Assembly: GCA_016186765.1 (NCBI GenBank) | Contig: JACPLD010000001.1 | Location: 1 to 40,559, forward strand | Source: Candidatus Kaiserbacteria bacterium | GTDB taxonomy: Bacteria; Patescibacteriota; Minisyncoccia; Phycocordibacterales; UBA2100 | DNA length: 40,559 nt | Direction of reading: 5' to 3' | Part shown: piece after piece, positions 2,917 through 38,509 of the stretch | Position numbering within the stretch: the stretch's first letter is position 1 | Layout of the letters: every line of letters starts with the position of its first letter | Position numbers and translations under genes: made by a program | The notes under the pieces: model-generated | What the model was told of the DNA's origin: nothing | Database searches by the model: none | The model's input: only the letters and a program-made list of their open reading frames with translations

Positions 2917-5112
2917 CTATTTCTTCTTGTGCGGATGGTGGTTGGGACAACTCTTATTTGAGCATCGCTCCGGTATCGTCTTTGTGCCCTCCATCATGAG
3001 TGAGCCGCACTCAGGGCACGTGCGCCCCGTGGGACGGGCCTTGATTGCATATTTGCACTCGGGGTAATTGGAGCATGAGTAAAAGACGCCGAAGCGACCC
3101 TTGCGCTCGACCATTTCGCCTTTTTTACACACGGGGCAGGCAACACCCGTTTTGGCCAGCTCTTCCTCCGCGGGATCTTTTTTGACGAACTTGCATTTGG
3201 GATAGTTGGAGCAGGCGATAAATCGGCCAAAGCGCCCCTCGCGTTCTATCAACTGTCCCGGCTTTCCGTTCTTTGCCTGCGGTGAGCTTGTCGAACCGCA
3301 TTGTGGACATGGCTCGCCGATCTCTTTTGGAGGAGCTATCTCGCTTCCGTCCTCCTTGCGGGCGCCGAGGCACTCCGGAAAGCGCTTGCAGCTCATGAAG
3401 CGGCCGCTCCGAGAGAGCTTGTAGACCATAGGACCACCGCACAGCGGGCAGGGAAATTCTTCCGGGGCATCGCCCATGTTGGTGAGCTTCTCGATCGTGC
3501 TCTTGCTTTTTACAGCCTTCGTGAACGGCGTATAGAAATCTTTGAGTGTTTTTTTGTACTCTCGCTTCCCTTCCGCTATCTCGTCGAGCTCGTCCTCCAT
3601 TTCTGCGGTGAACGTATCACTGATGTAGTCTTTGAAGTGCTCTTCGAGGAAGGTGGAGACTACGTCGCCCGTGTGCGTGGGAACGAGCGTACGGCCTTGC
3701 TTTTCCACATAGCCGCGGTCCTCCAAAGTCTTGATGATGCTCGCGTAGGTGGATGGCCGGCCGATGCCCCGCTTTTCGAGCTCTTTCACGAGGCCCGCCT
3801 CCGAGTAGCGCGGCGGCGGCTCGGTTTCTTTCTCATCCACATGCGCTTGTATGAGCGTGAGCGGATCGTGTGCCGCCACTTTCGGCAGCTCTATTTCTTC
3901 GCCGCGCGCAGCTGGATCGCACGCAAGCCAGCCATCGAAGATGATGCGCGAACCGTTCGCGGTGAAATCGGGGATCGTCCGGCTCTCCACATTCCCGACG
4001 ATCTTCGTTCGGAGGATCCGTGCATCTGCCATTTGGCTTGCGAGCGTACGTGCGCGGATAAGCGCATACAATTTTTTTTGATCGTCGGTCGAACCCGCTG
4101 TCCGCTTTCCTGCGTCGGTCGGTCTGATCGCTTCATGCGCTTCCTGTGCGAGCTTGCTTTTCGTTTTGTACGTGCGTGCCTGATGGTATTTCTCGCCGAA
4201 TTCTTTCGTGACGACAGCCGCCAAGTGTCCGAGTGCTTCCTTTGCAAGATTCGTCGAGTCGGTGCGCATGTAGGTAATGAAGCCGCTCTCGTAGAGTTTT
4301 TGCGCCGCGCGCATCGTGCGTGAGGGAGAGAAACCGAGACGTGTCGAGGCGGCCTGCTGCATGGTGGAAGTGGTGAACGGGGCGCGCGGCGCACGCGCGG
4401 CCTCGGACTCGGCGACGTCCACAACGCCCCACTTCTCCGACTCTGCCGTCTTGAGGATACGTCCTGCTTCTTTTTGGTCGGTCGGCTCTTCGGTGCAGGT
4501 AGCGGTAAAGCGTTCTTTCTTCTTGGTCTCAAGTTCCGCGCTTATGACCCAGAATTTCTCTGGTACAAAGGCGCGGATTTCGCGCTCGCGTTCCATGAGA
4601 ATGCGAAGCGCGGGGGATTGCACGCGGCCTGCAGAGAGGCCATAGCGAACCTTTTTCCACACCAAGCCCGAGAGATCGTAGCCAAAGAGGCGGTCCAAGA
4701 CACGCCGCGCTTCCTGGGCTTTCACGAGCTCGTCGTCGATACCACGGGGGTGTGTGAGTGCTTCCTGCACTGCATGCTCGGTGATTTCGTTGAAGACGAT
4801 GCGCTTCGGATCCTTGAGGCCGATGGTTTCCGAAAGGTGCCACGCGATCGCCTCCCCCTCACGATCGGGGTCTGTTGCGAGGATCACTTCGTCCGCCTTT
4901 TTAGCTTCTTTGTGTAAGGCGTCGATGACATGCTGTTTCTCTTTCACCACTTGGTAGCGCGGCACAAATCCGCTTTCGATGTCTACAGCGTCCTTGTTTG
5001 ACTTCGGCAAGTCGCGAATGTGTCCGACGCTCGCGCGCACCGTAAAACCCTCGCCGAGGTACTTTTCAATTGTCTTCGCCTTCGCGGGCGACTCAACTAT
5101 GACAAGCTTCAT
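2917..5112 (-). CDS. topA: DNA topoisomerase I with C-terminal zinc ribbons
   Basis: LVIVESPAKAKTI, LATDPDREGE, SAGRVQS, GFITYMRTDS, QEAHEAIRPT; several CPxC zinc-ribbon repeats. Confidence 0.97.
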   Translation of the reverse strand: MKLVIVESPAKAKTIEKYLGEGFTVRASVGHIRDLPKSNKDAVDIESGFVPRYQVVKEKQHVIDALHKEAKKADEVILATDPDREGEAIAWHLSETIGLKDPKRIVFNEITEHAVQEALTHPRGIDDELVKAQEARRVLDRLFGYDLSGLVWKKVRYGLSAGRVQSPALRILMEREREIRAFVPEKFWVISAELETKKKERFTATCTEEPTDQKEAGRILKTAESEKWGVVDVAESEAARAPRAPFTTSTMQQAASTRLGFSPSRTMRAAQKLYESGFITYMRTDSTNLAKEALGHLAAVVTKEFGEKYHQARTYKTKSKLAQEAHEAIRPTDAGKRTAGSTDDQKKLYALIRARTLASQMADARILRTKIVGNVESRTIPDFTANGSRIIFDGWLACDPAARGEEIELPKVAAHDPLTLIQAHVDEKETEPPPRYSEAGLVKELEKRGIGRPSTYASIIKTLEDRGYVEKQGRTLVPTHTGDVVSTFLEEHFKDYISDTFTAEMEDELDEIAEGKREYKKTLKDFYTPFTKAVKSKSTIEKLTNMGDAPEEFPCPLCGGPMVYKLSRSGRFMSCKRFPECLGARKEDGSEIAPPKEIGEPCPQCGSTSSPQAKNGKPGQLIEREGRFGRFIACSNYPKCKFVKKDPAEEELAKTGVACPVCKKGEMVERKGRFGVFYSCSNYPECKYAIKARPTGRTCPECGSLMMEGTKTIPERCSNKSCPNHHPHKKK
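3275..3300 (-). repeat. REP-like hairpin in frame within topA
   Basis: Sense strand TGCGGT-TCGACAAGCTC-ACCGCA-GGC, encoding CG-STSSPQA right after CPQC. Confidence 0.8.
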
Positions 5113-5171
5113 GGCGGCTAGTGATACTTCAGAAGCGTATCACGTGTCAAATGAAGCGATGTTGTAACTGT

Positions 5172-5993
5172 TCAGTTTGTATATACCTCTGCGAGCTGTC
5201 TGCTTTCAATCGGAATGCTCTCAAGATCGAGCTCCACGTGAATCGGATAGTGATCGGAACCGTGGCGCTCTGCTACAACGCGCGACGATTCTACAGAAAG
5301 ATGCTTCGAAATGAGTATATGGTCTAGCTGTCTGCTGATGAGGTGCGTTCGCTGGCCGCTTAGCGGATTTACGAGACCGAGTGCTGCAATGCGCTTCTCA
5401 AACTCGATGCGTTCGCGCTGGTAGCGAAGCGCATCGCTCACGCGTCCACCGAGGAGCCAGTTGAAGGGCGCGACAAACGGCGTGTCGAGAATGTTGAAGT
5501 CGCCACATACCAGGGTCGGCAGATGCGGGTTGTACTCACGCATTGCGGTCTCGAATTCGCGGCGTCGCGCTTCTGGGTGCGCGAGCGTGAGGTGGAGACA
5601 AAACACGCGCACAGGATTCGAGAAGCCGTCGATCTCGATATCTGCAAAAAAGCCATGACGGTTTCTCACACGCGACCAATGAATGGGTCGCATCGCTTGC
5701 ACAAAAAACCGCGTGCGAAGAGGCTGGTACGGCATCTCAAGCGCAAACTTACTGTGCGAGACGATTGGGTGACGACCTAAAATAACGAGATAGTTTCTTT
5801 CGATCCTGTCCGGATACACGCGATCAACATCGGGCGCGAACGCAATGTTCACGGGCAGTTTCTGAAGTCGGTACAGGAATTCGTCTGGCACTTCTTGCAA
5901 ACAGAGCACGTCGAAATCGAGGTTCTTGATGAACTCGAATGCCCGCTCGAGCTTTCCGTTGCGGAAAAATATGTTCCACGAGTAGATTTTCAT
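5172..5993 (-). CDS. Endonuclease/exonuclease/phosphatase (EEP) family protein
   Basis: SWNI, DVLCLQEV, LVCGDFN, LDHILIS and GSDHYPI motifs. Confidence 0.9.
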   Translation of the reverse strand: MKIYSWNIFFRNGKLERAFEFIKNLDFDVLCLQEVPDEFLYRLQKLPVNIAFAPDVDRVYPDRIERNYLVILGRHPIVSHSKFALEMPYQPLRTRFFVQAMRPIHWSRVRNRHGFFADIEIDGFSNPVRVFCLHLTLAHPEARRREFETAMREYNPHLPTLVCGDFNILDTPFVAPFNWLLGGRVSDALRYQRERIEFEKRIAALGLVNPLSGQRTHLISRQLDHILISKHLSVESSRVVAERHGSDHYPIHVELDLESIPIESRQLAEVYTN

Positions 5994-5994
5994 T

Positions 5995-6861
5995 TCATCG
6001 GATTCGAATGACCCCCAACTCCTCTATGATAAGGCCTTTGATCTCCATGGTCGAGAGCAAGATGTTGGCATCTGTGACTGGTAGCCCGAGTGCCTCGATG
6101 AGCTCGCTGCGAGAAAGGGGAGAGCTGATGATTTCAATTACCCGCCTCTCCTCCTCCGACAAGTCCTCGCGCAGTGAGGTAAGGGTCTCGGATGCCTCGC
6201 GCTTCGCGATGCCAAGCGCAACCAAAATATCCTCCGCGCTTGTCACCGCGGTCGCGCCGAGACGCAAGAATTGATGCGTTCCCTTACTCTCCTCCGAGAA
6301 GATGGAGCCGGGTACGACGAGCAGCTCGCGATTATACTCCACGGTGAGCCGCGCGGTGATGAGAGAGCCGGAGAGCTCTTTCGCCTCGACGATCAAGGTG
6401 GCGCGGCTCAAGCCCGCCATGATCCTGTTGCGCTTCGGGAACGTCCAGTCTGCCGCTTTCGTTTCGGGCTCTTCCTCGGAGAGAAGCGCACCGCCTGCTT
6501 TGAGGATCTCGCGCGCGAGGCCGACGTTTGCGCGCGGGTAGAGCGTGTCCCAATCCAATCCGCTTCCTGGCACTGCAACGGCGGGAAGCCCGACTTCAAG
6601 AGCGGCTCGATGGGCTGCCGCGTCCGCTCCGTACGCGAGCCCACTCACGATGACTATTGGATAGCCTCGAAGGCCTTCGATAAGGTGTTTGCACGCAGCG
6701 ATACCGTACGGTGTGAGAGCGCGGCTGCCGACGACGCACAGCCAGGAAAGGTCCTCGCTCGGAAACGTGCCGCGGAGGTACAGCTGCTTCGGGGCGTCGG
6801 GAATTTGGCGCAGGAGCGTCGGGAATTCGCCAGGGGAGAGCAGTTTGAGTTCATCGCTCAT
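5995..6861 (-). CDS. dprA: DNA-processing protein DprA
   Basis: VVGSR, IVSGLAYGADAAAH, FPKRNRIMAGLS, VEAKELSGSLITA; near topA. Confidence 0.95.
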   Translation of the reverse strand: MSDELKLLSPGEFPTLLRQIPDAPKQLYLRGTFPSEDLSWLCVVGSRALTPYGIAACKHLIEGLRGYPIVIVSGLAYGADAAAHRAALEVGLPAVAVPGSGLDWDTLYPRANVGLAREILKAGGALLSEEEPETKAADWTFPKRNRIMAGLSRATLIVEAKELSGSLITARLTVEYNRELLVVPGSIFSEESKGTHQFLRLGATAVTSAEDILVALGIAKREASETLTSLREDLSEEERRVIEIISSPLSRSELIEALGLPVTDANILLSTMEIKGLIIEELGVIRIR

Positions 6862-6883
6862 ATGGTGCTATCATCATAGGCAC

Positions 6884-6958
6884 AGAAAGGAGAAAGCAGA
6901 AGACAGTATGCAGTGAATTTCACGCGTTCTGCTTACTGCTTACGGCCTACTGCATTCT
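6884..6958. repeat. Two inverted heptamer arrays in the dprA/serS divergent intergenic region
   Basis: Left AGAAAGG AGAAAGC AGAAGAC AGTATGC; centre GTGAA-T-TTCAC; right GCGTTCT GCTTACT GCTTACG GCCTACT GCATTCT. Same GCNTWCT-like unit on opposite strands. Confidence 0.65.
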
Positions 6959-6959
6959 C

Positions 6960-8249
6960 ATGTTGGATATCAAGTTTATCCGAGAAAATAAGGACATTGT
7001 CGCTGCTGGGGCGAAGAAGAAACGTATTCAGATAGACCTCGACAAGCTTATCACGCTCGATGACAAGCGCCGGGAGCTCCAGAACAAAATCGATGAGAAG
7101 CGCGCGGAGCAAAATGCGGCCTCAAGCGCGATCGCGGCAGCAAAAGATCCTGCCGAGAAACAAACAATTGTCGCGCGCATGCAGGAGGTGAAAGAGACAC
7201 TTCGCCTTGAAGAGGAATCCCTGCAGGAAATCCTCAAAGAGTGGCGGATTCTGATGGTGCAGGTGCCGAATGTTCCCGACGTGTCGGTTCCGGAAGGTGA
7301 TTCTGACGCAGATAACAAAGAAGTGCGTCAATGGTCTCCCGCCTCCGGCTTTGGGGGCGAGAAGCCACAGTTCGATTTCGAGCCGAAAAGCCACACGGAG
7401 CTTCTTCTCATGCACGACATGGCCGATTACGAGCGAGGCGCAAAGGTTGCAGGATTTCGCGGGTACTTTCTCAAGAACGATGGCGCACGCATGGTGTGGG
7501 CTTTGGAGCGGTTCGTGCAGGACAGGTTCGCCGATAAGGGCTTTGTGCCGATGATCGTGCCATCGCTCGTGCGCCGTGAGAGCTTCGTCGGCACGGGCTA
7601 CCTTCCGCAGAGCGAAGAGGATCTCTACAAAACGCAAGACGGCGAGTACCTCGCGGGCACGGCGGAAGTCGCGACGATGGGTTATCTCCAGGACGAGATT
7701 TTGGAGAAGAAAGATTTGCCGCTCAAGTTCTTTTCTTTCTCACCGTGTTTTCGTCGCGAAGCGGGGAGCCATGGCAAGGACACGAAGGGCATATTTCGTA
7801 TTCACGAATTCGTGAAATATGAGCAGGTTGTTTTGTGCGAGGCAAAGCATGAGGAGTCCATTCGCTTGCATGAGGAAATTACTGAAAACGCGGAGCGTCT
7901 TTTGCAGGAGCTTGAGCTTCCGTACCATGTTGTCATCAACTGCGGAGCCGACCTTGGCTTAGGGCAAGTAAAAAAGTATGACATTGAGACATGGATGCCG
8001 AGCGAGAAGAAGTATCGGGAGACGCACTCTTCCTCATACTTTCATGATTTCCAGACGCGCCGCCTCAACATACGGTATCGCGATGAGGGCACCTTGCGCT
8101 ATGTGCACTCCCTGAACAACACCGCGCTCGCGACACCGCGCATCCTTACGCAGATCGTCGAGAACAATCAGCGTGCCGATGGCTCGATCTCGATTCCGGA
8201 GGCTCTCCGGAACTACATGGGGAAAGATGAGATCAGGCAGAATCGTTGA
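6960..8249 (+). CDS. serS: Serine--tRNA ligase
   Basis: MLDIKFIREN, coiled-coil arm, GTAE, FRREAGSHGKDTKGIFRIHEF, HSLNNTALA. Confidence 0.97.
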   Translation: MLDIKFIRENKDIVAAGAKKKRIQIDLDKLITLDDKRRELQNKIDEKRAEQNAASSAIAAAKDPAEKQTIVARMQEVKETLRLEEESLQEILKEWRILMVQVPNVPDVSVPEGDSDADNKEVRQWSPASGFGGEKPQFDFEPKSHTELLLMHDMADYERGAKVAGFRGYFLKNDGARMVWALERFVQDRFADKGFVPMIVPSLVRRESFVGTGYLPQSEEDLYKTQDGEYLAGTAEVATMGYLQDEILEKKDLPLKFFSFSPCFRREAGSHGKDTKGIFRIHEFVKYEQVVLCEAKHEESIRLHEEITENAERLLQELELPYHVVINCGADLGLGQVKKYDIETWMPSEKKYRETHSSSYFHDFQTRRLNIRYRDEGTLRYVHSLNNTALATPRILTQIVENNQRADGSISIPEALRNYMGKDEIRQNR

Positions 8250-9159
8250 TCTAAGGAGGCGGAAACCCGGCATTTCGATGCATCCGCTCAGATTCCGAGA
8301 CGCGCCAAAGCGCGAGACTCTCCGCGTGCGCCGAAGGAGAGTACGCGCGATCCTCTTACTTGCGCTTGCAGCTTTTTTCGCACTCGCCGCGTACGGTGTG
8401 AGCGCGCTTTCATATCTGCCGCGTTTTTCCGTTGACCACATAGAGGTGAGCGGAGCAAACGACATTCGGGGGGAACTCGTGCGCGCGTACGTCGCAACGA
8501 AGCTTTGGGACGGCTCGCTCTCTTTCCTCTCGAAGAGCAACATTTTTCTCTATCCCCGGGCTGAAATAGAAACGGCGCTCAAGGAATTCTTTCCTCGTGT
8601 TGAGCGTGCAAAGATCTCGCGTCAAACGCTCCTTGGAAACGCCATCACCGTTTCGATAGAGGAGCGGAAGCCTTTCGGCAAGTGGTGCCCCTCGACTTCG
8701 CTCGGGGCAAGTCCGGAATCGTGTTATACGATGGACGGTGGGGGATTCATATTTGCGTTTGCCTCGACAACCCCCCGATTCGACACGATGTATGAATTCG
8801 AAGGCTCGCTTTCTTCCACAAGCCCTTCTCTAGGGCAGACCTACCTGCCGGGGCGATTCTCCGGAGTGCTCGCGCTTCTTGAGCGACTCGGCCAGGCGGG
8901 ATTTTCTCCGCAGAGAATTTCTGCCGAGAGCTCCCCTACGCAGGGAGGCGATCAGGATTTCTCGGTCGCGCTCGCAGAAGGTTTTCGGCTACGTGTTTCG
9001 TTCGGAGCGGACGTTGGTGCGATAGTGAAAAATCTTGAGCTCGTACTTTCGTCAGAGACGCTGCGAGGCAGGGAAGACGAGCTCGAGTACGTCGATCTGC
9101 GATTCGGCAATCGGGTGTATTACAAATTGAAAGGGGAAGAACAGCACAGTGTCGAATAG
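8227..9159 (+). CDS. FtsQ/DivIB-like cell division protein
   Basis: Basic N-tail, one TM helix, POTRA-like segment (IEVSGAN..ITVSIEERKP) and C-terminal EYVDLRFGNRVYYK. Start uncertain (8227 or 8278). Confidence 0.75.
   Translation: MRSGRIVDLRRRKPGISMHPLRFRDAPKRETLRVRRRRVRAILLLALAAFFALAAYGVSALSYLPRFSVDHIEVSGANDIRGELVRAYVATKLWDGSLSFLSKSNIFLYPRAEIETALKEFFPRVERAKISRQTLLGNAITVSIEERKPFGKWCPSTSLGASPESCYTMDGGGFIFAFASTTPRFDTMYEFEGSLSSTSPSLGQTYLPGRFSGVLALLERLGQAGFSPQRISAESSPTQGGDQDFSVALAEGFRLRVSFGADVGAIVKNLELVLSSETLRGREDELEYVDLRFGNRVYYKLKGEEQHSVE
8686..8709 (+). repeat. REP-like hairpin in frame within the ftsQ-like gene
   Basis: TGCCCC-TCGACTTCGCTC-GGGGCA, encoding C-PSTSLGA. Confidence 0.75.
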
Positions 9160-9161
9160 AA

Positions 9162-9196
9162 AAGAGGGGGCAGGCCAACGCGGCCGCCCCCTTCTT
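9162..9196. terminator. Bidirectional terminator hairpin
   Basis: AAGAGGGGGC-A-GGCC..GGCC-GCCCCCTTCTT between convergent genes. Confidence 0.7.
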
Positions 9197-9199
9197 CGT

Positions 9200-9400
9200 T
9201 CATGTCTTGACGACCTCCTCGGAGGTCAGACCGAGCACTTGCTCGGCTCTCGCCCGGACTTGAGGAGAAACCTGCTCCTTGCGCTCCCGAAGGATCGCTG
9301 CAATTTGCTCGTTCGCTCCCTCGCAATAAGGTTGAAACGCGATCAGAAGCATCAGCGCTCCATCAGCCGGAATCAAGACTTTCCCGTTTTTCCCCACCAC
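9200..9400 (-). CDS. Small hypothetical protein (66 aa)
   Basis: GTG start preceded by AGAGGAGG SD; consensus promoter upstream and terminator downstream. Confidence 0.7.
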   Translation of the reverse strand: MVGKNGKVLIPADGALMLLIAFQPYCEGANEQIAAILRERKEQVSPQVRARAEQVLGLTSEEVVKT

Positions 9401-9446
9401 CTGGGTCCTCCTCTAGAGTACGGAGACGGAAATTACCTCCATTGAA

Positions 9447-9475
9447 ATCATACCTTGCGCTCACCGAAGTGTCAA
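9447..9475 (-). promoter_or_regulatory. Sigma70-type promoter for the 66-aa ORF
   Basis: Minus strand TTGACA-17 nt-TATGAT. Confidence 0.75.
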
Positions 9476-9523
9476 AAGTCAGTATCCGACTGTTCCTACA
9501 TGTATATATGTATAATGCGCCGT

Positions 9524-10576
9524 ATGGCAAAAAAAGGCTCGAGCTACGCGACGCTCTATCGTAAGTATCGGCCGCAAAGCTTTACAGAAGTGCGCGGGCA
9601 GCCGCAGGTGACAGAGACGCTCGAGAAGGCGATCAAGAACAAAAAGATCGCGCATGCGTATCTCTTTTCGGGCTCGCGCGGGACGGGGAAAACCTCTGTC
9701 GCGCGCATTCTCGCCAAAGAGCTTGGTGTCTCGGAGAAAGACCTCTACGAAATAGATGCAGCCTCCAATCGTGGCATCGACGATATCAGACTTTTGCGTG
9801 AGGGCGTCTATGCAATGCCCTTCGAATCGCCGTATAAGTTTTACATCATCGACGAGGCGCACATGCTCACGAAAGATGCTTGGAACGCATTTTTAAAAAC
9901 GCTCGAGGAACCGCCCGCGCACGCCATCTTCGTCTTGGCAACCACGGAGCGCGACAAAATACCGGAGACTATTCAGTCGCGCTGCGAGATATATTCTTTC
10001 AAACAGCCGACGCGTGAGATGCTTGCCGAGATTGTCGAGGGTGTCGCGAAAAAGGAGGGATTCACACTCGAGCGCTCTGCTTCCGAACTTATCGCGCTCC
10101 TCGCCGAAGGCTCCTTTCGCGATGCGCTTGGGATTCTCCAGAAAGTGCTTGCGGTATCGGAGAATAAGAACGTTGAGGTCGCAGAGGTCGAAGCGGTAAC
10201 GGGCGCTCCGCGAGGAGAGCTCGTGCGAGCGTTGTTAGAGGGCATTGCCAAGAAGGACGCGAGCGCAGCATTGAAAGCCATACAAACCGCAGTTTCCGAG
10301 AACATGGACGCACGCACGCTTGCAAAACTTCTCATCCATCGCATGCGTGTCGTGCTCTTGATGCGCTATGCACCAGATCTTGGTGATTCACTCGCGCGAG
10401 AGCTCAGCGATTCCGACGTGGCGCTCGCCCGCTCGCTCGTCAAAGAATCCGGCGTCAACTCAGATACTCTGCGCGCGCTCCTCGCAGCATACGGGACGAT
10501 GGCCTATGCCGCGCTGCCGCACTTGCCGCTCGAGCTTGCGATAGTTGAGATTTGCAGCTCTAAGGGATCGGTATGA
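9524..10576 (+). CDS. dnaX: DNA polymerase III subunit gamma/tau (short form)
   Basis: LYRKYRPQSF, HAYLFSGSRGTGKTS, EIDAASNRGIDDIR, IIDEAHML, LKTLEEPP, TIQSRC. TATAAT 7 nt before ATG 9524. Confidence 0.95.
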   Translation: MAKKGSSYATLYRKYRPQSFTEVRGQPQVTETLEKAIKNKKIAHAYLFSGSRGTGKTSVARILAKELGVSEKDLYEIDAASNRGIDDIRLLREGVYAMPFESPYKFYIIDEAHMLTKDAWNAFLKTLEEPPAHAIFVLATTERDKIPETIQSRCEIYSFKQPTREMLAEIVEGVAKKEGFTLERSASELIALLAEGSFRDALGILQKVLAVSENKNVEVAEVEAVTGAPRGELVRALLEGIAKKDASAALKAIQTAVSENMDARTLAKLLIHRMRVVLLMRYAPDLGDSLARELSDSDVALARSLVKESGVNSDTLRALLAAYGTMAYAALPHLPLELAIVEICSSKGSV

Positions 10577-11115
10577 AAGCAATTGCGGGCATCTTTGTTC
10601 TCCTCATCGTGGTGATAGGAGCGTACCTATTGTTTGGAACACGATCTCCGAGCGTCGAAGGCGCTAGATATGCTAATGCAACATATGGCATTTCGTTCGA
10701 ATATCCGAGTGCGCACGCTTTGCAGGAAAGGGAAGTTGGCGACGCTCATCGGTATCACTACTCGATAACGCTTATCGACAAAGAAGCGCTTGCTACATTG
10801 CCGCAAAACGGTGAAGGGCCTCCGACCATCAGTGTCGATATATTCCAGAATAATTTGGACCAACTCTCGATCGAGCAGTGGGTGCGCGGAACGAACTTCT
10901 CGAACTTTAAACTTTCACCGGATGGTCTGCTCGCCTCAACGACTGTCGCGGGCGTTCCCGCACTCTCCTACACGTGGGATGGTCTTTATCGCGGCGAAAG
11001 CACGGTATTTACGCACAAAGACAACGTCATCATGCTGTCCGTTACCTACCTCTCGCGCGACGACCAGATTCGCGCAGACTTCGCCCGCGTACTTTCAAGC
11101 TTGACCTTGTTCTAG
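10573..11115 (+). CDS. Membrane-anchored exported protein, PsbP-like fold suspected
   Basis: N-terminal hydrophobic anchor, Y.N..YGISFEYP motif, C-terminal F..VLSSLTL; ATGA overlap with dnaX. Confidence 0.7.
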   Translation: MKAIAGIFVLLIVVIGAYLLFGTRSPSVEGARYANATYGISFEYPSAHALQEREVGDAHRYHYSITLIDKEALATLPQNGEGPPTISVDIFQNNLDQLSIEQWVRGTNFSNFKLSPDGLLASTTVAGVPALSYTWDGLYRGESTVFTHKDNVIMLSVTYLSRDDQIRADFARVLSSLTLF

Positions 11116-11248
11116 CTGGGGGACAAGGATGTCTGGGAAACCCACGGTTTTCCCATTCCTTCCTCCACGGAGAACTCCCGTTCCCCGACCCCTTCCCAAT
11201 CCAAGCCCCGCAAAATTCACGGAGCTCATTTTGCTGGGGGACATGGAT
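11115..11248. repeat. Duplication of the tRNA-Gln 3' end flanking a 102-bp hairpin-rich spacer
   Basis: GCTGGGGGACAAGGAT (11115-11130) vs GCTGGGGGACATGGAT (11233-11248), 15/16 identical. Confidence 0.75.
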
Positions 11249-11304
11249 TCGAACCATGATTAACGGCTCCAAAGGCCGCTGTCCTACCGTTAGACGATCC
11301 CCCA
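11234..11304 (-). tRNA. tRNA-Gln (anticodon UUG), CCA not encoded
   Basis: Reverse complement TGGGGGATCGTCTAACGGTAGGACA-GCGGC CT TTG GA GCCGT-TAATCATGGTTCGAATCCATGTCCCCCAG. Confidence 0.95.
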
Positions 11305-11382
11305 AACTCCCTAACGATAGCAGCAGATAGTCAAAGAATGAAGTCGCTCGTTTATCAGAGACTAAATGATAAGATTGTCTCC

Positions 11383-11487
11383 ATGTCTGAGCGGCCACCT
11401 CAAACGGCGCGACCGCTTTATCTTTTCAAGTTCAACATGAAGAGGTTTGACATCGCGGGCTTGAAGAAAGCGTACGAGCAAGGATGA
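11383..11487 (+). CDS. Possible 34-aa microprotein MSERPPQTARPLYLFKFNMKRFDIAGLKKAYEQG
   Basis: TAAGAT 7 nt before ATG, matching the leaderless pattern in this window; no homology recognised. Confidence 0.35.
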   Translation: MSERPPQTARPLYLFKFNMKRFDIAGLKKAYEQG

Positions 11488-11507
11488 GCAGTTTCGAATT
11501 CGCGCGG

Positions 11508-11536
11508 TTGACAAGGACTTCTCTTTCTGGTACCTT
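11508..11536 (+). promoter_or_regulatory. Sigma70-type promoter upstream of the DEAD-box helicase
   Basis: TTGACA-17 nt-TACCTT. Confidence 0.7.
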
Positions 11537-11541
11537 TGCAT

Positions 11542-11678
11542 GGTCTGACATTCTCTATTGGTTTTTTGTCTTGGGAGATCCAAGGCCGCCGCAAAGCTTA
11601 GGCGTGAACCTATCCCGAGATCGTTCGACAATATTTTAGGGGCCAATCAGGCCCAAAGCCCGTACATCGGGCATACAT
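11542..11678 (+). ncRNA. Candidate structured 5' leader of the helicase mRNA
   Basis: Nested pairings GGTCTGA/TCAGGCC, TTGGTTTTT/AGGGGCCAA, TCTTGGGA/TCCCGAGA, CGCC/GGCG, then hairpin GCCCG-TACAT-CGGGC before ATG. Confidence 0.5.
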
Positions 11679-12934
<1,256 letters not shown>

Positions 12935-12938
<4 letters not shown>

Positions 12939-12978
12939 TTCGACGATTCGATAAACTCACCGCAAGCAAGCTCACTAC
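12935..12978 (+). repeat. Nested intergenic copies of the TCGACAAGCTC repeat
   Basis: GTAATTCGAC[GATTCGATAAACTCACCGCAAGC]AAGCTCACTAC. Confidence 0.7.
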
Positions 12979-12982
12979 AACT

Positions 12983-13132
12983 ATGTCGAAGAATTTCTAC
13001 AAGGACGGCAAATGGATAGACAACCCGAACGAGGTGGTAGTGGTCGTGTGCGAATGCGGCAACAAGTACATCAAAACGCGCGAGGAGCAGACTGCGTGCC
13101 TCCGCTGCTTCGTCAAAAGAAAGCATGAGTAG
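12983..13132 (+). CDS. 49-aa putative zinc-binding microprotein
   Basis: MSKNFYKDGKWIDNPNEVVVVVCECGNKYIKTREEQTACLRCFVKRKHE; CxC..CxxC; fills the gap between the helicase and the next ORF. Confidence 0.7.
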   Translation: MSKNFYKDGKWIDNPNEVVVVVCECGNKYIKTREEQTACLRCFVKRKHE

Positions 13133-13406
13133 GCCTGCGCGCATTCGCGATGACGCGCCGAAGCGGGAAAAATTCGATTTCCAGAAAATGAAGGCTGCCG
13201 CCGCCAACAAGGATCCTGCTGTGCGGAAGCAGGCGTTCATCGAATATTTTGAGCGGTTCGCGGAATTTCCCTCGTACCTCTTCGACAACGAGCAAAAAAT
13301 TGATGACCGTCTCCTCGAAACAATGCAGGACCTTCTCAAGGATCCGGAGACGAGCAAGGAGATGCACAAGGGCATTACCGATCTCTTGGAGAGGCTTGCG
13401 TCCTGA
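13125..13406 (+). CDS. Hypothetical protein (93 aa)
   Basis: Natural charged helical composition; overlaps the upstream ORF by 8 nt. Confidence 0.75.
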   Translation: MSRPARIRDDAPKREKFDFQKMKAAAANKDPAVRKQAFIEYFERFAEFPSYLFDNEQKIDDRLLETMQDLLKDPETSKEMHKGITDLLERLAS

Positions 13407-13427
13407 AATCTCCGGTATATTTATCCT

Positions 13428-13541
13428 ATGACAAAACGTGCGAGTGTCGACATCAGGAGAAAGAAATCGCGTTCAAAGAAGACAGCGAAGCGCTTGGCGG
13501 CCAAGAAGGCCATGCTTGAGGCCAAGGGCTACAAGTGGTAA
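13428..13541 (+). CDS. 37-aa highly basic microprotein
   Basis: MTKRASVDIRRKKSRSKKTAKRLAAKKAMLEAKGYKW; TATATT 6 nt before ATG. Confidence 0.65.
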   Translation: MTKRASVDIRRKKSRSKKTAKRLAAKKAMLEAKGYKW

Positions 13542-13651
13542 GCGGTGCTGGAAACGGCCGACGCTACGACGATGCTGGGAACACAGGCTGATAATCAGAT
13601 TGCTCTGTCGATTGTAGACGATAGAGCACACCAGTTTGCTACACTTTCAGA

Positions 13652-14509
13652 ATGGCAGTGTCGCAGCTATTCATCTATTTCCTTTTTTTCTCTGCGGGAT
13701 TTGTTCTGGTGTCGCTCTGGAGTTTTTGGCTTTCGGTCCGGCCGCCGCAGATAACGCTGGGATTTACGCCGGATGAGTTCGGTCTTTCTGCCGAGGATGT
13801 GGTGCTCACGGCTGACGACGGCGCGAAGCTCGCAGCGTGGTTTATTGGAGAAGGAGCGGGAGAGAGCAAACGTGCAATCATACTTCTGCATGGCTACCCG
13901 GCGGAGAAATCTGACATGCTCAGTGTGGCTCGCGCGCTTCACCCCGAGTTCGCCGTCCTTCTCATGGATTTGCGCTCGTTCGGAGAGAGCGAGGGCGCCT
14001 ACACGACGCTGGGACTTAAGGAGTCTCGCGATGTCGCCAAGGCACTCGATTTTCTTACCGAGAGAGGTTACGGGCATATCGGGATATTTGGCTTCTCGCT
14101 TGGCGGCTCAACGGCGCTCCTCGCGGCGGCAGAGGATTCGCGTCCTCTCGCAGTCGCGAGCTATGGGGCGTTCGCCGATCTGCGGATGCTTGGTCACGAG
14201 ACATACCGCTCTCTTCTGGTTCTTAAGTATCCATTGGTGGCTCTCATGGAGCTGTGGGCGCGCCTCCTCTTTGGCGAATGGGCAGACCCCGCGGCGCCCG
14301 TCGGCGCCGCAGAGCGGCTCACGATCCCCGTTCTCATCATTCACAACAGGGAGGACGAGCAAATATCGTTCACCCATGCGGAGCGTCTCCGCGAAGCGCT
14401 CTCGAATAACGAAGCGGCCGAGTTCTACGATGTAAAAGAAGGGCGGCACGGAGTGCTCCCTGCCGATTTTGAGCAGCGGGTGAAAGCGTTCTTTGTGAAG
14501 TCGCTCTGA
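13652..14509 (+). CDS. Membrane-anchored alpha/beta hydrolase
   Basis: LLHGY, DLRSFGES, GFSLGG nucleophile elbow, Asp (REDEQI) and His (GRHG). Confidence 0.9.
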   Translation: MAVSQLFIYFLFFSAGFVLVSLWSFWLSVRPPQITLGFTPDEFGLSAEDVVLTADDGAKLAAWFIGEGAGESKRAIILLHGYPAEKSDMLSVARALHPEFAVLLMDLRSFGESEGAYTTLGLKESRDVAKALDFLTERGYGHIGIFGFSLGGSTALLAAAEDSRPLAVASYGAFADLRMLGHETYRSLLVLKYPLVALMELWARLLFGEWADPAAPVGAAERLTIPVLIIHNREDEQISFTHAERLREALSNNEAAEFYDVKEGRHGVLPADFEQRVKAFFVKSL

Positions 14510-14564
14510 ATGTTCATGCGACTCAGCATTTTGTATACTGCGGTATTATTCTCATTGAATGCAT

Positions 14565-14936
14565 ATGATCGCACACACGACGCTTCCAGTTTCTGATTAT
14601 AAAAGATCTAAGCAATTTTACGTCAGCGCGCTCGAGCCGCTCGGGTACACGAACAACATGGAGTATGGCGAGGCAGCCGGCTTCAACGACGGCAAGAATA
14701 CCGACTTTTGGATTTCGGGGCAAAAGAAAGTTGTTCCGACGCATATTGCGTTTGAAGCGAAAAGCAAGGACGAAGTGGAGCATTTCTTTAAGGCGGCGCT
14801 TGCTGCGGGCGCAAAGGATAATGGCGCGCCTGGATATCGCAGGGACTACTGGCCGGGATACTACGCAGCGTTCGTTCGAGACGTCGATGGTCACAACATC
14901 GAAGCGGTCTGGTATGATTACAGTCAGGCGAAGTAG
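14565..14936 (+). CDS. VOC/glyoxalase family protein
   Basis: HTTLPVSDY..SKQFY, HIAFEA, GAKDNGAPG, YYAAFVRDVDGHNIEAV. Confidence 0.92.
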   Translation: MIAHTTLPVSDYKRSKQFYVSALEPLGYTNNMEYGEAAGFNDGKNTDFWISGQKKVVPTHIAFEAKSKDEVEHFFKAALAAGAKDNGAPGYRRDYWPGYYAAFVRDVDGHNIEAVWYDYSQAK

Positions 14937-14970
14937 AAGGACGAGAAAGAAGATTTGATACACTGTAACA

Positions 14971-15147
14971 ATGGCAAAGACAGAGTCGCGGGTACAGCTA
15001 AGAGAAAGTGATCCGGCCCCAGCATTTGAGCTACAGGGCACGCGGGCAGACACTCTGAATTTCAGCGTCAACAAATTGACGCCCGAGGAGCTTGAGCTCA
15101 CCTACATGGATCGTGGCGGAGTCCTTCGATTCACGAAAGTCCAGTAA
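14971..15147 (+). pseudogene. 58-aa probable chimeric ORF (redoxin N-terminus fused to an unrelated C-terminus)
   Basis: MAKTESRVQLRESDPAPAFELQGT parallels the start of 15877 (MVKTASFSRMQQGDAAPAFSLAG), then switches to DTLNFSVNKLTPEELELTYMDRGGVLRFTKVQ; TACACT 6 nt before ATG. Confidence 0.55.
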
Positions 15148-15231
15148 TTGTAGACTCGATACGAGTTTTGTTGTATAGTGCAGGTCGGCCTTAGGCGCGA
15201 TAGGCGCTTAAGTGCGAAGAAGGAGGATGCC

Positions 15232-15786
15232 ATGAAAAGCCTTTTGTTTCGCTGCGTCGTTGCAGCGATTGCGCTCACATGCGTGGGCGCACCCTACAGT
15301 GCTCGCGCAGGAGACCCGGTAGAAGTCTACCGGCAAGGCGAGCAGCTCGATTTCGGTCTGGCCGAGAAGCGTTTTGCCTGCCGCAACTTCCAGCTTGTCA
15401 CCGACTTCGTCACGTCCGTCCGCGACAAGTTTGGTGGTGACAAGGGCCTCGAAATGCTTTGGAGCCCGGTCCAGCGTGTCTCAAATGACGGCACGCTTGT
15501 GCTTAGTCCCGAACTCGAAGCGAAGCTGCCAGACCTGGCTGAGGCGGTGCATAATTTTTGCATCACGGCGCCGCCAAAAGTTATCGTTCTGGGAGCGTTC
15601 GACTACATCAAAGTCGGCAAGACCGATGAGGCAGTCGTAACGTTGGTACTTGATTCCCATGGTCAAGCATGGGCTCTCTACTACCTGAACATCAGGGTTG
15701 TGACGCCGCTTCCTGGGAGTGAGGATGCCAAGCGTTACGGGGCGATACTGGATTTCCTGGCTGCCCCATCGGCTCAGGAACACTAA
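15232..15786 (+). CDS. Secreted hypothetical protein (184 aa)
   Basis: AGGAGG SD, signal peptide ending ARA, own promoter (TATAGT) and terminator. Confidence 0.75.
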   Translation: MKSLLFRCVVAAIALTCVGAPYSARAGDPVEVYRQGEQLDFGLAEKRFACRNFQLVTDFVTSVRDKFGGDKGLEMLWSPVQRVSNDGTLVLSPELEAKLPDLAEAVHNFCITAPPKVIVLGAFDYIKVGKTDEAVVTLVLDSHGQAWALYYLNIRVVTPLPGSEDAKRYGAILDFLAAPSAQEH

Positions 15787-15802
15787 AGCATCTCTTCGAG
15801 GA

Positions 15803-15835
15803 GCCGGCGCGCAGCGCGCCGGCCCTTGTTTTTTT
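15803..15835 (+). terminator. Rho-independent terminator
   Basis: GCCGGCGCGC-A-GCGCGCCGGC followed by a T tract. Confidence 0.85.
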
Positions 15836-15876
15836 AAAAGTCTACCACTTATTTCGATGTGTGCGATGATGAGAAT

Positions 15877-16473
15877 ATGGTAAAAACGGCATCATTCAGC
15901 AGGATGCAACAGGGAGACGCAGCGCCGGCATTTTCGCTCGCTGGCATCGACGGGCGGACGTACTCGCTTGAGGACTTTCGCGGCAAGAAAGGTATCTTTG
16001 TGCTTTTCATGTGCAATCACTGTCCGTACGTGAAGGCGCGAATGGACGAGGTTGTATCACTCCACCAAGAGTTTGGCGAGCGAATCGCGTTTGTCAGCAT
16101 CAACGCGAGCGATCCGGATTATTCCGGAGAGGGGTTGGAGAACATGAAAGCGTTTGCGAAGGAACGAGAGATGACCTTTCCATACCTGATGGACGAGGAC
16201 GGTGCTGTTGCAAAAGCATACGGTGCCACGTGCACGCCCGATCCGTTCCTTTTCGAGGCTTCGACAAGCTCAGCCTCGACCCTGAGCGGAGTCGAATGGG
16301 TCAATGCGGAAGGGAAGCTCGTGTTCCATGGGAAGCTCGTGGACGCTCTCGAGCCGCAAGACGTGGTCCATGAGCACACGATGCACGAGAACATGCGAAA
16401 GCTTCTCGCAGGCGAGCCGATCGAGCCGTGGTTCGACCCGAGCGTAGGCTGCTCCATCAAATTCAAATCATAG
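15877..16473 (+). CDS. Thioredoxin-fold (AhpC/TSA, redoxin) family protein
   Basis: APAFSL, FMCNHCPYV, FPYLMDE, YGATCTPDPFLF, SVGCSIK. Confidence 0.92.
   Translation: MVKTASFSRMQQGDAAPAFSLAGIDGRTYSLEDFRGKKGIFVLFMCNHCPYVKARMDEVVSLHQEFGERIAFVSINASDPDYSGEGLENMKAFAKEREMTFPYLMDEDGAVAKAYGATCTPDPFLFEASTSSASTLSGVEWVNAEGKLVFHGKLVDALEPQDVVHEHTMHENMRKLLAGEPIEPWFDPSVGCSIKFKS
16253..16302. repeat. Two oppositely oriented REP-like hairpins in frame in the redoxin gene
   Basis: TCGAGGCT-TCGACAAGCTC-AGCCTCGA, then GACCC-TGAGCGGAGTCGAAT-GGGTC; encodes EASTSSASTLSGVEWV. Confidence 0.85.
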
Positions 16474-16536
16474 GAAAGGGTGAGGAGCAGGGGGCACGCT
16501 TTGACACTGCACTACCTGCTTGCTAGCGTGCCTTGA

Positions 16537-17916: not shown

Positions 17917-18010
17917 CGCTCGCGGGCATAAGCATTTTGGAGTCGCATATCCGCCTGCTGGCGGATTGCTCCCGCTCGCTTAGAGTTGCGAATGAAGGTA
18001 TAAATCAAGT

Positions 18011-19102: not shown

Positions 19103-19194
19103 AGTGGCGTAAATCTTGCGATTCAGTGATAGCCATGGTATAGTTTCCGCAGTGCCGTCCAATCCCGGATCGCACAGCAATCGGGAGGTAACCG

Positions 19195-22854: not shown

Positions 22855-22948
22855 TGTTTCGATGGAACAGACATTGTCATCGTGATATTATCAAGCAAGT
22901 TGACGTATTTTCGAATATTACTCGCTTTTAGTAACTCCCTTTGATTTT

Positions 22949-29811: not shown

Positions 29812-30471
29812 ATGAAGACCGTCTACTTTGTCCGGCATGGAGAGAGCACGGCGAATGCCGGCTTTCCGACCTATCAGGGCGAAGCAAGCAAGCTCAGCGA
29901 AAAAGGCATTGAACAGGCGCACTTCATCGCAAAACGCTGCAAAAAGCTCCACGTCGATGTGCTTATCGCAAGCACGGCAACACGCGCGAAGCAAACTGCG
30001 GACTACATAGCTAGCGAAATTAGCAGAGACGTTGAGGTCAATGAACTTTTTACCGAACGGAAACTGCCAAGCGAGCTTGTCGGACGCTCACGTTCGGATC
30101 CCGATGCGCAAGCAATGGAAGAGGCATGGCTACAATCGTTCTTTCAAGAGGATGTTCGTGTCGGGAGCGGAGAGAACTTCTCCTTGCTGAAGGCCCGCGT
30201 CATGTCTGCGCTCGACTACCTACGTGATCGGCCTGAAGAACACATCCTCGTTGTGACGCACGGCTTTTTTCTCCACATGACTGCAGCCCTCGTCATGCTC
30301 GGGGAGGCGGTGTCGGCCGAGGAATTCGGAAAAGTCGCCCCTGCTATGTGGATGGATAATACCGGCCTCACGCGCATTGACCATCGGGATGAAGTCTTGA
30401 GACGCATCGATCGGAAGCGCCATCGAGGGTGGGTTTTGAGGGTGTGGAACGATCACGCGCACTTAGGGTAA
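29812..30471 (+). CDS. Histidine phosphatase (phosphoglycerate mutase) family protein
   Basis: YFVRHGES, RAKQTA, GENF, LVVTHG, WNDHAHL. Confidence 0.92.
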   Translation: MKTVYFVRHGESTANAGFPTYQGEASKLSEKGIEQAHFIAKRCKKLHVDVLIASTATRAKQTADYIASEISRDVEVNELFTERKLPSELVGRSRSDPDAQAMEEAWLQSFFQEDVRVGSGENFSLLKARVMSALDYLRDRPEEHILVVTHGFFLHMTAALVMLGEAVSAEEFGKVAPAMWMDNTGLTRIDHRDEVLRRIDRKRHRGWVLRVWNDHAHLG

Positions 30472-30515
30472 GGCAAAAGCCTGCCTGCCGGCAGGCAGGA
30501 TAAAGGGCAAAAGTG
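30472..30515. repeat. Intergenic heptamer array containing a perfect 20-bp palindrome
   Basis: GGCAAAA G[CCTGCCTGCCGGCAGGCAGG]ATAAAG GGCAAAA GTG. Confidence 0.85.
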
Positions 30516-31658: not shown

Positions 31659-31701
31659 GTATACCCCGTGAGATAGAACCCCGGTATCTCATGGGGTATA
31701 C
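31659..31701. promoter_or_regulatory. 17-bp inverted repeat overlapping the pyrB -10
   Basis: GTATACCCCGTGAGATA-9 nt-TATCTCATGGGGTATAC, one mismatch. Confidence 0.6.
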
Positions 31702-34380: not shown

Positions 34381-34396
34381 TAGGGTGGGTGGGTTC

Positions 34397-37528: not shown

Positions 37529-38091
37529 AGACCGTTTACGGTGAGCGAAGTCGAACCGCTGTTTTTGGAGGCGGATGTTTTTGGTGCACAGAGGCAGTAT
37601 TTCAAATGCTGAAGGGGGTTACAAAGGTCGAGCCTGGTTATTCCGGGGGGAAAATGGACGATCCGACTTATGAGGCTGTCTCAAGCGGGACGACAGGACA
37701 CGCAGAGGTCATTCGTGTGACATACGATCCTGTCCTCATCTCATATGACGATTTGCTCACTGTTTTCTTCGGCTCTCACGATCCGACGAGCATGAATCGG
37801 CAAGGCGGAGATGTGGGAGAGCAGTACCGCTCGATAATCTTTTATCAGACCGATGACGAGCAACGTGTCGCCGAGAAGAAGATTGCAGAGATAAATGAAA
37901 GCCTCAAGGATGGTACACGCATCGTCACAGAGCTCGCGCCATTCAGAAATTTCTACAAAGCAGAGGATTACCATCAGAATTACTACAAGACCAATACGAG
38001 CGCTCCCTACTGCCAGCTCGTTATCGAGCCCAAGATCGAAAAAGTTCGCAAGCGCTTTGCTGAGCTGCTCAACGACAATGCAAAGAAGTGA
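37525..38091 (+). CDS. msrA: Peptide-methionine (S)-S-oxide reductase
   Basis: GGGCFWCTE, GTTGHAE, HDPT..NRQG.DVGEQYRS, AEDYHQNYY. Confidence 0.96.
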   Translation: MKTVYGERSRTAVFGGGCFWCTEAVFQMLKGVTKVEPGYSGGKMDDPTYEAVSSGTTGHAEVIRVTYDPVLISYDDLLTVFFGSHDPTSMNRQGGDVGEQYRSIIFYQTDDEQRVAEKKIAEINESLKDGTRIVTELAPFRNFYKAEDYHQNYYKTNTSAPYCQLVIEPKIEKVRKRFAELLNDNAKK

Positions 38092-38509
38092 ATTCGAAAA
38101 ATTGGTGGCCGAAGGATATGAGCGTCTGCCGAAATGGGTCCAGCAGAAAATAAAAAATGTTGGTCTCCTCGTTGAGGATGAGCCGTCAGAGGAAGACCGA
38201 AAAGCGCAAGGACTCTCCGACGACGAGACGCTTCTTGGCCTCTACAAGGGCATTCCTCTCTCCGAACGTGGGGAGCACTACGGTGTGGGCCCAACTATGC
38301 CCGACACGATTACGCTCTATCAGATTCCGATCGAAGATGCCGCCGAAGAATTAAGGACTTACGATGTCGTTAATAACGACTTACGAAGTCGTTATTTGGA
38401 AAACGTCAGGAAAGTTGTGGCAGAAACCATTTGGCATGAGTTTGCACACCATTTTGGGATGGATGAGGGAGAGGTGCAGGCTCGGGAGCATCGACGGAAA
38501 GATTTTTAG
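38078..38509 (+). CDS. Zincin-like metallopeptidase family protein
   Basis: LLGLYKGIPLSER, PDTITLYQ.PI, HEFAHHFG (HExxH). Confidence 0.9.
   Translation: MQRSEFEKLVAEGYERLPKWVQQKIKNVGLLVEDEPSEEDRKAQGLSDDETLLGLYKGIPLSERGEHYGVGPTMPDTITLYQIPIEDAAEELRTYDVVNNDLRSRYLENVRKVVAETIWHEFAHHFGMDEGEVQAREHRRKDF
38352..38396. repeat. Two tandem 22-bp palindromic units in frame in the zincin gene
   Basis: TAAGGACTTACGATGTCGTTAA TAACGACTTACGAAGTCGTTAT; the second forms AATAACGACTT-ACG-AAGTCGTTATT. Confidence 0.8.

Follow-up and report, generated by a model that had tools for sequence, protein, structure and literature searches.

Ultra-short repeats, probably of the REP kind, within protein-coding genes of a 755-kb Candidatus Kaiserbacteria genome

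Described systems and the present genome

A transposase gene flanked by a short palindrome of which further copies are scattered over the genome is the architecture called a REPtron in the sections of PMC3733652 considered here, which deals with repetitive extragenic palindromic (REP) sequences. In this work we describe short in-frame inserts in six conserved genes of a 40,559-nt stretch of DNA (the window), the first 40.6 kb of contig 3 of a Candidatus Kaiserbacteria genome (GCA_016186765.1), together with the repeat families behind them and six transposase-like genes elsewhere in the genome. With a probability of roughly 0.7, we interpret the six sites as products of ultra-short repeats of the REP kind that have spread into coding sequence genome-wide, accompanied by enzymes resembling the REP-associated tyrosine transposases (RAYTs).

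The original prediction regarded such repeats as normally extragenic and the coding ones, known from Rickettsia, as long, a picture that was incomplete. As reported by Di Nocera, De Gregorio and Rocco in 2013 (PMC3733652, same sections), open reading frames (ORFs) encoding known proteins can contain whole short REPs tagged with GTAG or CGTC, either single or dimeric; some ORFs were struck twice, and genes of DNA replication and repair were often affected. The authors equated the short Rickettsia palindromic elements (RPEs) RPE-4 and RPE-6 with CGTC REPs, and RPEs appear there as in-frame palindromic repeats in functional genes of a reduced genome. In those sections CGTC REPs are without a dedicated transposase, and intragenic units form a minority of large families (PMC3733652).

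The present genome shares with REP/RAYT systems, as far as the cited sections portray them, a Y1/HUH gene flanked by a genome-dispersed short palindrome, one enzyme gene per palindrome family, several families per genome, and doublets. It differs in its proteins, which are distant and pass the Pfam Y1_Tnp cut-off but miss that of the NCBIfam RAYT model, in the few copies per family, in about half of all copies being intragenic rather than mostly extragenic, and in the host, a 755-kb Candidatus Kaiserbacteria genome. Repair and replication genes are hosts in both cases (here topA, UvrC, PolX, Mpg and TatD). In contrast to the intragenic REPs of 2013, as described in those sections, the families here are small with mostly intragenic copies, and one and the same protein site is occupied in each of several genomes by a family of that genome. 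Those REPs and the families R1-R6, A, B and C presented below may overlap (PMC3733652). In-frame insertion into conserved genes with absence from orthologs, the feature of RPEs, is also found here; RPEs have an alphaproteobacterial host. RPE-1 is well over 100 bp, whereas the elements described here are 19-31 nt long, and RPEs are not known to have a linked transposase. Intragenic REPs have been on record since 2013, and the present case is REP/RAYT-like with an unusually heavy colonisation of coding sequence; it is set apart by its host group, its small and mostly intragenic families, six enzyme-palindrome pairs in 755 kb, and genome-specific reuse of sites. No description of a RAYT-type system in Candidatus Kaiserbacteria or the candidate phyla was found in the literature searched, in which one preprint mentions an archaeal RAYT only, and we could not find the additional feature brought by family A described.

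Repeat families, host genes and inserts

The genome under study (G000; 754,943 bp in five contigs, C1-C5; G+C 54-55%; completeness 96%) was found in groundwater metagenome runs and holds ~750 genes at 88-90% coding density, as called by a purpose-written ORF and codon-usage script; other G numbers denote genomes of the same genus. Repeat families were defined by self-comparison of the genome, followed by fuzzy scans that were repeated on ten third-order Markov control genomes. Nine families with ~70 copies and units of 19-31 nt were obtained. Class I comprises the perfect palindromes R1-R6 (19-29 nt), present in 5, 6, 5, 7, 3 and 5 copies, respectively. Class II consists of family A, a non-palindromic unit of 24-25 nt with 21 copies; family B, a 20-nt palindrome from CCTG/CAGG with 10 copies; and family C, a hairpin of ~28 nt with 8 copies. 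The control genomes gave 0 to 0.1 matches per family, and a chance origin of the families was thereby ruled out. Scanning for the motif TCGACN2-3GCTC, as the original prediction had proposed, returned 105 matches on both strands; a motif of this length does not distinguish members of the families from ordinary coding sequence. Nesting occurs, with a B copy located within a C hairpin at C4:51516. Regarding tag sequences, GTAGGG comes after the R5 copy in PheT and R1 copies have the form ATGTC...GACGC, the copies being too few to define a tag.

Approximately 38 of the ~70 copies lie well inside Pfam-recognisable genes, a count from which transposase-linked copies and three doubtful ones near ORF starts (C2:32295, C2:55542 and C1:37009) were excluded. 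All 20 host genes checked carry Pfam families, namely PurL-type AIR synthase domains, AdoHcyase, TsaD, UvrC, class-V aminotransferase, DHFR, SNase, PheT domains, Mur ligase, saccharopine dehydrogenase, class I tRNA synthetase, Pol-beta/PHP, MPG, Wzy_C, MnmA-type, YqeY, TatD, M48 peptidase, a redoxin-domain protein and a methyltransferase. Intragenic status was taken from gene calls and Pfam alone for PurL, Mpg, IleS, PolX, the Mur ligase, MnmA, TatD, YqeY, the M48 peptidase, the redoxin-domain protein (C1:2-1627), the SNase-domain protein, saccharopine dehydrogenase, the Wzy_C protein and the methyltransferase. Overall, ~4% of genes contain an insert, and SerS, IleS, PheT, topoisomerase I, TsaD, PurL and DHFR are among the hosts. 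We also observed that one SNase-domain gene (G000:C5:178964-179908) holds three different in-frame elements, A, R4 and C.

The reading frame is near-constant within families, as seen in the peptides NNDLRSRY (4/4), CQGxTLT-like (4/4) and LPxxRQ (5/5). Family A is read in this genome as STSLRA, LRQAQGK or FDFAQGK. All 16 intragenic copies of this family are oriented as the host gene, and five of the six possible frames of its unit are open.

In the window, Pfam identified the six genes as those of topoisomerase I, seryl-tRNA synthetase, an FtsQ-type POTRA protein, an AhpC/redoxin protein, glutamate dehydrogenase and a Zincin_1 peptidase. The original prediction placed an in-frame hairpin in each; its positions, peptides, frames and gene identities stood, but the hairpin is significant against shuffles only in gdh and zincin (DNA folding z-scores -3.76 and -3.99), and not in topA (-1.59), serS (-1.21), ftsQ (-0.59) or redoxin (-1.47). 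The term "palindromic" is therefore apt only in part. Likewise, the proposal of several palindromic families held for five of the six sites, which fall in families above chance (topA, ftsQ, redoxin and gdh in class II, zincin in class I), but family A is non-palindromic and serS belongs to no family.

Insert status was judged on alignments with same-genus orthologs. That the peptides are insertions, previously proposed without an alignment, is clean for topA, serS and gdh; ftsQ and zincin are less simple. The topA insert (3265-3297, minus strand) comprises 33 nt in frame and encodes GSTSSPQAKNG (11 aa) in the C-terminal zinc ribbon (Pfam Zn_ribbon_Top1), between a CxxC and the remainder. Its positions 3273-3297 match a variant of family A with one mismatch, and none of 18 same-genus orthologs has the insert. 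In serS, codon alignment delimited 21 nt in frame (7335-7355, plus strand; SPASGFG), common to four of 19 orthologs and missing in 14, among them the closest one; in one ortholog, another insert stands a few residues further on. This insert matches none of the nine repeat families. The copy in ftsQ (8688-8712, plus strand) is a 25-nt TTCG variant of family A with three mismatches to the consensus, read as PSTSLGA. It lies within a length-variable loop of the FtsQ/POTRA protein, and a related PSTTLRA was found in one of 18 orthologs, that of the closest relative.

The redoxin gene carries an inverted pair of degenerate family A units, ASTSSASTLSGVEWV (16253-16302, plus strand). No orthologs were found in the genus, merely weak paralog-level matches, and the comparison used 15 homologs chosen from 120 listed in a protein database, longer ones being deliberately included. 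The segment of 16-19 aa is missing in ten of these, present in two, and replaced by a different insert in three. The homologs P0045 and P0076 have in-frame inserts of their own with a similar peptide flavour.

At the gdh site (22012-22083, plus strand), alignment gave a net gain of 57 nt (19 aa). The region contains heptamers in a run (GTCAAAA/GGTAAAA), the family B palindrome of 20 nt at 22032-22051, and another 15 extra bases. The 19 residues are found in none of 15 orthologs. In the AlphaFold2 model of GDH, built with 14 aligned sequences (mean predicted local distance difference test score, pLDDT, 90.3), residues 171-181 of the insert follow the helix 151-170 and form the sole internal segment with pLDDT <50. 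The mapping of this insert onto the predicted structure yielded a low-confidence loop in an otherwise confident model, which fits a tolerated surface loop. The zincin gene contains a doublet of the R4 palindrome, LRTYDVVNNDLRSRY (38352-38394, plus strand), one copy with two mismatches and one exact, and a short form of the protein occurs in ten of 17 orthologs.

The two intergenic copies predicted for the window were both confirmed. A relative of the topA insert, also a family A variant, lies at 12943-12968 (plus strand), immediately behind the stop codon of the gene 11679-12938; it agrees with the topA insert in 22 of 26 bases, a score reached by none of 2000 shuffles. At 30480-30499 there is an exact 20-nt family B palindrome, given without strand, with heptamers of the GCAAAAG type on its flanks. 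Contigs assembled by Logan from three runs, which belong to one study and possibly represent the source sample, so that they are not independent, cover five of the sites (3001-23000) with zero differences and zero indels; a further run, X5, gives fragments only. No RNA run was among those listed for this DNA. The only Rfam matches in the window were two tRNAs.

Outside the window, PheT, the class-V aminotransferase (IscS) and UvrC were each compared with five relatives. PheT has gained 27 nt with an R5 copy, IscS 39 nt with an R3 doublet, and UvrC 24 nt at each of two sites, the first an R2 copy and the second exactly one unit A; each insert is absent from all five relatives. Together with GDH (+57), topA (+33) and serS (+21), every clean net insertion is thus a multiple of three (3n) in length and free of stops. 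No clear target-site duplication was seen at the junctions of clean insertions. Transposable elements of the miniature inverted-repeat type (MITEs; 70-300 bp, bearing inverted repeats at their termini as well as target-site duplications) differ from the units described here, which have 19-31 nt.

Other copies leave the length almost unchanged. In AhcY, 33 nt separate the anchor codons with or without the R1 palindrome, and exactly where this palindrome stands, the closest relative carries a unit resembling family A. The length change is about 0 in TsaD, and DHFR gains 12 nt (4 aa), its ancestral sequence resembling half of the palindrome. The core of the original prediction, that mini-repeats supply core proteins of a streamlined genome with additional loops, holds in view of the 755-kb genome size and the clean insertions, with these length-neutral copies as a caveat. 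Relatives have in-frame inserts of their own, at other or the same sites, in L108 (G014 AhcY), L132 (G011 UvrC) and L117 (G001 TsaD), so the phenomenon is genus-wide; the peptides of relatives' inserts in AhcY, UvrC, TsaD and the redoxin homologs are SAVEGLAL, SSFGGQ, PRRSESKAG and LPAEASAQAG.

Y1 genes, family A and other repeats

The original prediction placed the mobilising enzyme elsewhere in the genome and proposed a search for RAYT genes flanked by the same repeats. This search revealed six Y1_Tnp genes with their own palindromes, all outside the window and all above the cut-off of Pfam PF01797. One of them matches the zincin insert, but no enzyme was found for the families of the topA, ftsQ, redoxin and gdh inserts. 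Palindrome pairs ~650-740 nt apart enclose ORFs of 210-250 aa, whose proteins share a conserved C-terminal extension. The HUH motif NH[YF]HL is present in all six, and the tyrosine motif Y[IV]HxNP in five, the sixth retaining the Tyr. The exception to flanking by one and the same palindrome is the R4 Y1 gene (G000:C2:96572-97321), the one whose palindrome is that of the zincin insert; its own palindrome lies 5' and internally, and a different palindrome is found on the 3' side. Closer proteins have closer palindromes, as shown by R1/R6 (44% identical, common stem) and R2/R4 (63% identical). The NCBIfam model NF047646 (REP-associated tyrosine transposase) was the best and sole match for the four of six proteins tested, with 30.6-43.3 bits against a cut-off of 80.

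Insertion sequences (ISs) of the IS200/IS605 kind use a Y1 HUH enzyme and a single-strand mechanism, and their recognition sites are imperfect hairpins close to the ends of the element. The genes described here encode the same enzyme family. They differ in that the same perfect palindrome stands on both flanks (five of six genes), in that the six proteins are mutually 27-63% identical paralogs and not copies of one IS, and in that no TnpB was found. In the 96%-complete genome, no match was obtained to PF07282 (TnpB), PF01548 (IS110), PF00078 (reverse transcriptase), PF00665 (rve) or PF01609 (DDE_Tnp_1). Among other genomes of the genus, 18 of 20 have one to ten such Y1 genes. At 22 of 30 genus Y1 loci, the flanks share 18-30 nt, mostly as a palindrome that differs from gene to gene. 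Neither in the genome nor at these 30 loci does A, B or C flank a Y1 gene.

As a separate observation, the R2 and R4 Y1 genes hold their own palindrome in frame at the same aligned position (peptides NKGLRNHY and TNDLRSRY; G000:C2:43847-43867 and G000:C2:96811-96831), which may reflect self-targeting or autoregulation.

The zincin site connects the inserts with the Y1 genes across the genus. In each of four genomes (G000, G001, G006 and G016), this one site holds a palindrome matching the flank of a Y1 gene of the same genome. In G001 it is a doublet of that genome's own variant, with the stem changed on both sides, identical to the sequence flanking one of the Y1 genes of G001. The palindromes of two G006 paralogs are of the R2 type and resemble the flank of a Y1 gene in G006, and the G016 palindrome is like the flank of a G016 Y1 gene. 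The stem variants at the zincin site and the Y1 flanks are TACGGG/CCCGTA, TAGGGG/CCCCTA and TAGTGG/CCACTA. Repeated strikes at a few tolerant sites and replacement of residents by the active family both fit this reuse. Site reuse by a genome's own palindromes suggests that copies are replaced or refreshed, which is outside the usual REP picture.

Family A reaches far beyond the genus. Its census, limited to the exact 20-mer in a species-level genome collection, gave at least 120 stretches, with ~1 expected by chance (596 Gb, both strands, uniform base composition). The host and sequence features that follow refer to the matches listed. The hosts include Acidobacteria, Alphaproteobacteria, Planctomycetes, Chloroflexi, Bacteroidota, Cyanobacteria, relatives of Verrucomicrobia, Saccharibacteria and other candidate phyla, with some cultured isolates. 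Conservation is limited to a 24-nt core, often situated between lineage-specific inverted repeats. Within long open frames lie 47 of 131 copies, 41 of them forward, and the commonest frame across phyla gives the hydrophilic STSSGQ, for example in GyrB- and LeuS-like ORFs. The sole Rfam family found in 18 cross-phylum loci is the Acido-Lenti-1 RNA motif, and at two acidobacterial loci of this motif the empty form has 46 nt and the filled one 70 nt, a difference of exactly 24 nt. An all-against-all comparison of ORFs at the 120 loci listed revealed no recurrent transposase within 8 kb of family A, only housekeeping clusters. Phage contigs contain family A in 15 stretches and B in 35; in the stretches examined, tblastn found no Y1 genes in phage contigs with A or B, and B pairs 658 nt apart enclose ordinary small ORFs. 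Families B and C are also present in loci of other candidate phyla. Neither the 16-mer of family A nor the insert peptides were found in the literature searched, where only unrelated human-protein matches appeared.

The cyanobacterial very small dispersed repeats, reportedly described by Elhai and colleagues in 2008, are said to measure about two dozen bases, to nest in one another and in other repeats, to have no transposase of their own and to be confined to one phylum. They would be like family A in size, nesting and the missing transposase, whereas family A extends from Acidobacteria to Saccharibacteria. A PolX-like ORF of L172 (Saccharibacteria) has a family A unit at apparently the same protein position as PolX of the present genome (G000:C3:129495-131258; EIEAALRQAQGKPGGLPKL in L172, ELEAALRQAQGKPPGLPKL in G000).

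Several other repeats were noted. Runs of heptamers (GCAAAAG/TCAAAAG; elsewhere of the GAACAGA and GTATGGA types) form long intergenic inverted repeats (22012-22031 and 30465-30515 of the window, G000:C2:1434-1468, C3:167003-167092 and others) and flank the B palindrome; the B copies of phage contigs stand between heptamer runs of a different type, GGTGAGA. A MITE-like family of ~75-90 nt with the ends TTTTGGAGTC...GACTCCAAAA has 18 pieces in the genome, mostly intergenic (window 17918-17979 and 38517-38553; G000:C1:14138-14228, C1:30088-30181 and others). The intergenic inverted repeat GTATACCCCGTGAGATA...TATCTCATGGGGTATAC (window 31659-31701) represents two related families with 16 copies genome-wide, located between genes and often touching stop or start codons. 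A 67-nt intergenic repeat beginning with TCTGGGAAACCCACGGTTTTCCC (window 11132-11198) adjoins the tRNA gene 11234-11304 and has six copies in the genome, all intergenic. Finally, a GC-rich inverted repeat of 47-52 nt (window 11712-11762) occurs twice between genes and, in three genes, ~30 nt into the coding sequence as called; these starts are possibly wrong, in which case the repeat would be a 5' leader element.

Competing explanations and significance

Each of the six class I palindromes is paired with one diverged Y1/HUH gene (IS200-like, RAYT-like) that it flanks. By analogy with REP/RAYT and IS200/IS605, the enzyme would recognise its own hairpin on single-stranded DNA, cut and join it, and copy or replace palindromes in trans. 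For class II, one candidate mobiliser is the set of resident Y1 enzymes acting in trans. Most landing places would be genes because the genome is ~89% coding. Selection would then act as a filter that spares only in-frame, stop-free copies situated in surface loops able to tolerate them. Such filtering would account for the 3n lengths, for the peptides that recur (STSSGQA/STSLRA, LPAGRQG, NNDLRSRY, CQGxTLT) and for the repeated use of sites.

Several points weigh against spread by RAYT-like enzymes. No transposition was observed, and no site polymorphic between empty and filled forms was seen in the run contigs examined. Copy numbers are low (three to ten per family, family A aside), and classic REPs number in hundreds of copies. 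The four Y1 proteins compared with it score below the NCBIfam RAYT cut-off, and five of the six window sites are in families for which no enzyme was found in the genome or, in the case of serS, in no family. Simple insertion fails to explain the length-neutral copies (AhcY 0, TsaD ~0, DHFR +12 nt), as judged from the alignments, and we infer translation of the inserts from their intact frames. The orientation bias of family A could be mechanistic or selective and does not discriminate.

A rather unlikely alternative is that A and perhaps B and C are a separate, so far undescribed ultra-small element, a fixed unit (24 nt for A) written into hairpin and coding loops with a mechanism unrelated to the resident Y1 genes, such as a phage-carried enzyme, another trans-acting integrase or templated insertion. 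The exact 20-mer in at least 120 stretches of many phyla against ~1 expected, the conservation of nothing but the 24-nt core among the matches listed, and the gain of exactly 24 nt both in UvrC (against 5/5 orthologs) and in the Acido-Lenti-1 motif all speak for it. So do the lack of a recurrent transposase within 8 kb at the 120 loci listed, the presence of A and B in phage contigs that gave no match to the six Y1 proteins, and the 0/30 genus Y1 loci flanked by A, B or C. Nevertheless, no enzyme or template was found for such an element, Y1 transposases work in trans, so that a cognate enzyme need not adjoin its repeats, and the census covers exact matches only, from which the ages of copies are not readable. 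A related and tentative idea, less probable than not in our judgement, is that family A is an undescribed pan-bacterial, phage-borne mini-element of fixed 24-nt length with a core identical across phyla, written into the loops of hairpins already present (the Acido-Lenti-1 motif among them) and, in frame, into housekeeping genes, mostly in one orientation and with the peptide (P)STSSGQ(A). With no transposase nearby, such a mini-element would imply a shared trans-acting enzyme or a new mechanism of templated insertion; families B and C may work like family A.

The stems preserved by two-sided changes across species and paralogs, at the zincin site and the Y1 flanks, are also what would be expected of host-selected functional sites, i.e. 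protein-binding, nucleoid-organising or regulatory sites or RNA-stability hairpins spread or kept by gene conversion. The length-neutral replacements and the in-frame palindromes at one protein position of the R2 and R4 Y1 genes point the same way, yet the host genes and positions are unrelated, most copies are missing from orthologs (the closest relative included), and pairing one to one with transposase-like genes is a usual trait of mobile systems. Hairpin-templated correction can, moreover, keep palindromes perfect with no selected function, and we consider this explanation improbable. Far less probable still is that the inserts are untranslated, being removed from the mRNA or bypassed by the ribosome. 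The gdh and zincin inserts are indeed strong hairpins, but every verified net insertion is 3n and stop-free, the frame is near-constant within families (4/4, 4/4 and 5/5), and family A strongly prefers the hydrophilic STSSGQ frame across phyla, all of which would be needless if the stretch were skipped. Errors of assembly or binning, or chance similarity in variable loops, are barely credible. The genome is a metagenome assembly and the ftsQ, zincin and redoxin sites lie in length-variable loops, but separately assembled contigs of three runs agree base for base (possibly from the source sample), orthologs of other genomes have related inserts, and the control genomes gave ~0 matches.

The spread of REP-like repeats by RAYT-like enzymes leaves the pan-phylum 24-nt unit and the replacement-like behaviour as its unexplained part. 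A 24-nt unit found from Acidobacteria to Saccharibacteria and phages raises the testable question of what writes family A. The pairs of Y1 enzyme and palindrome, six here and dozens in the genus, constitute a natural panel for studying how the hairpin specificity of HUH enzymes changes. If the interpretation is true, the inserts would give rise to spurious "lineage-specific insertions" when sequences of candidate phyla are aligned or placed in phylogenies. It would also mean that a bacterium whose genome is among the smallest puts up with selfish mini-elements in essential genes and continues to gain them, which would provide a steady source of new surface loops in its core proteins.

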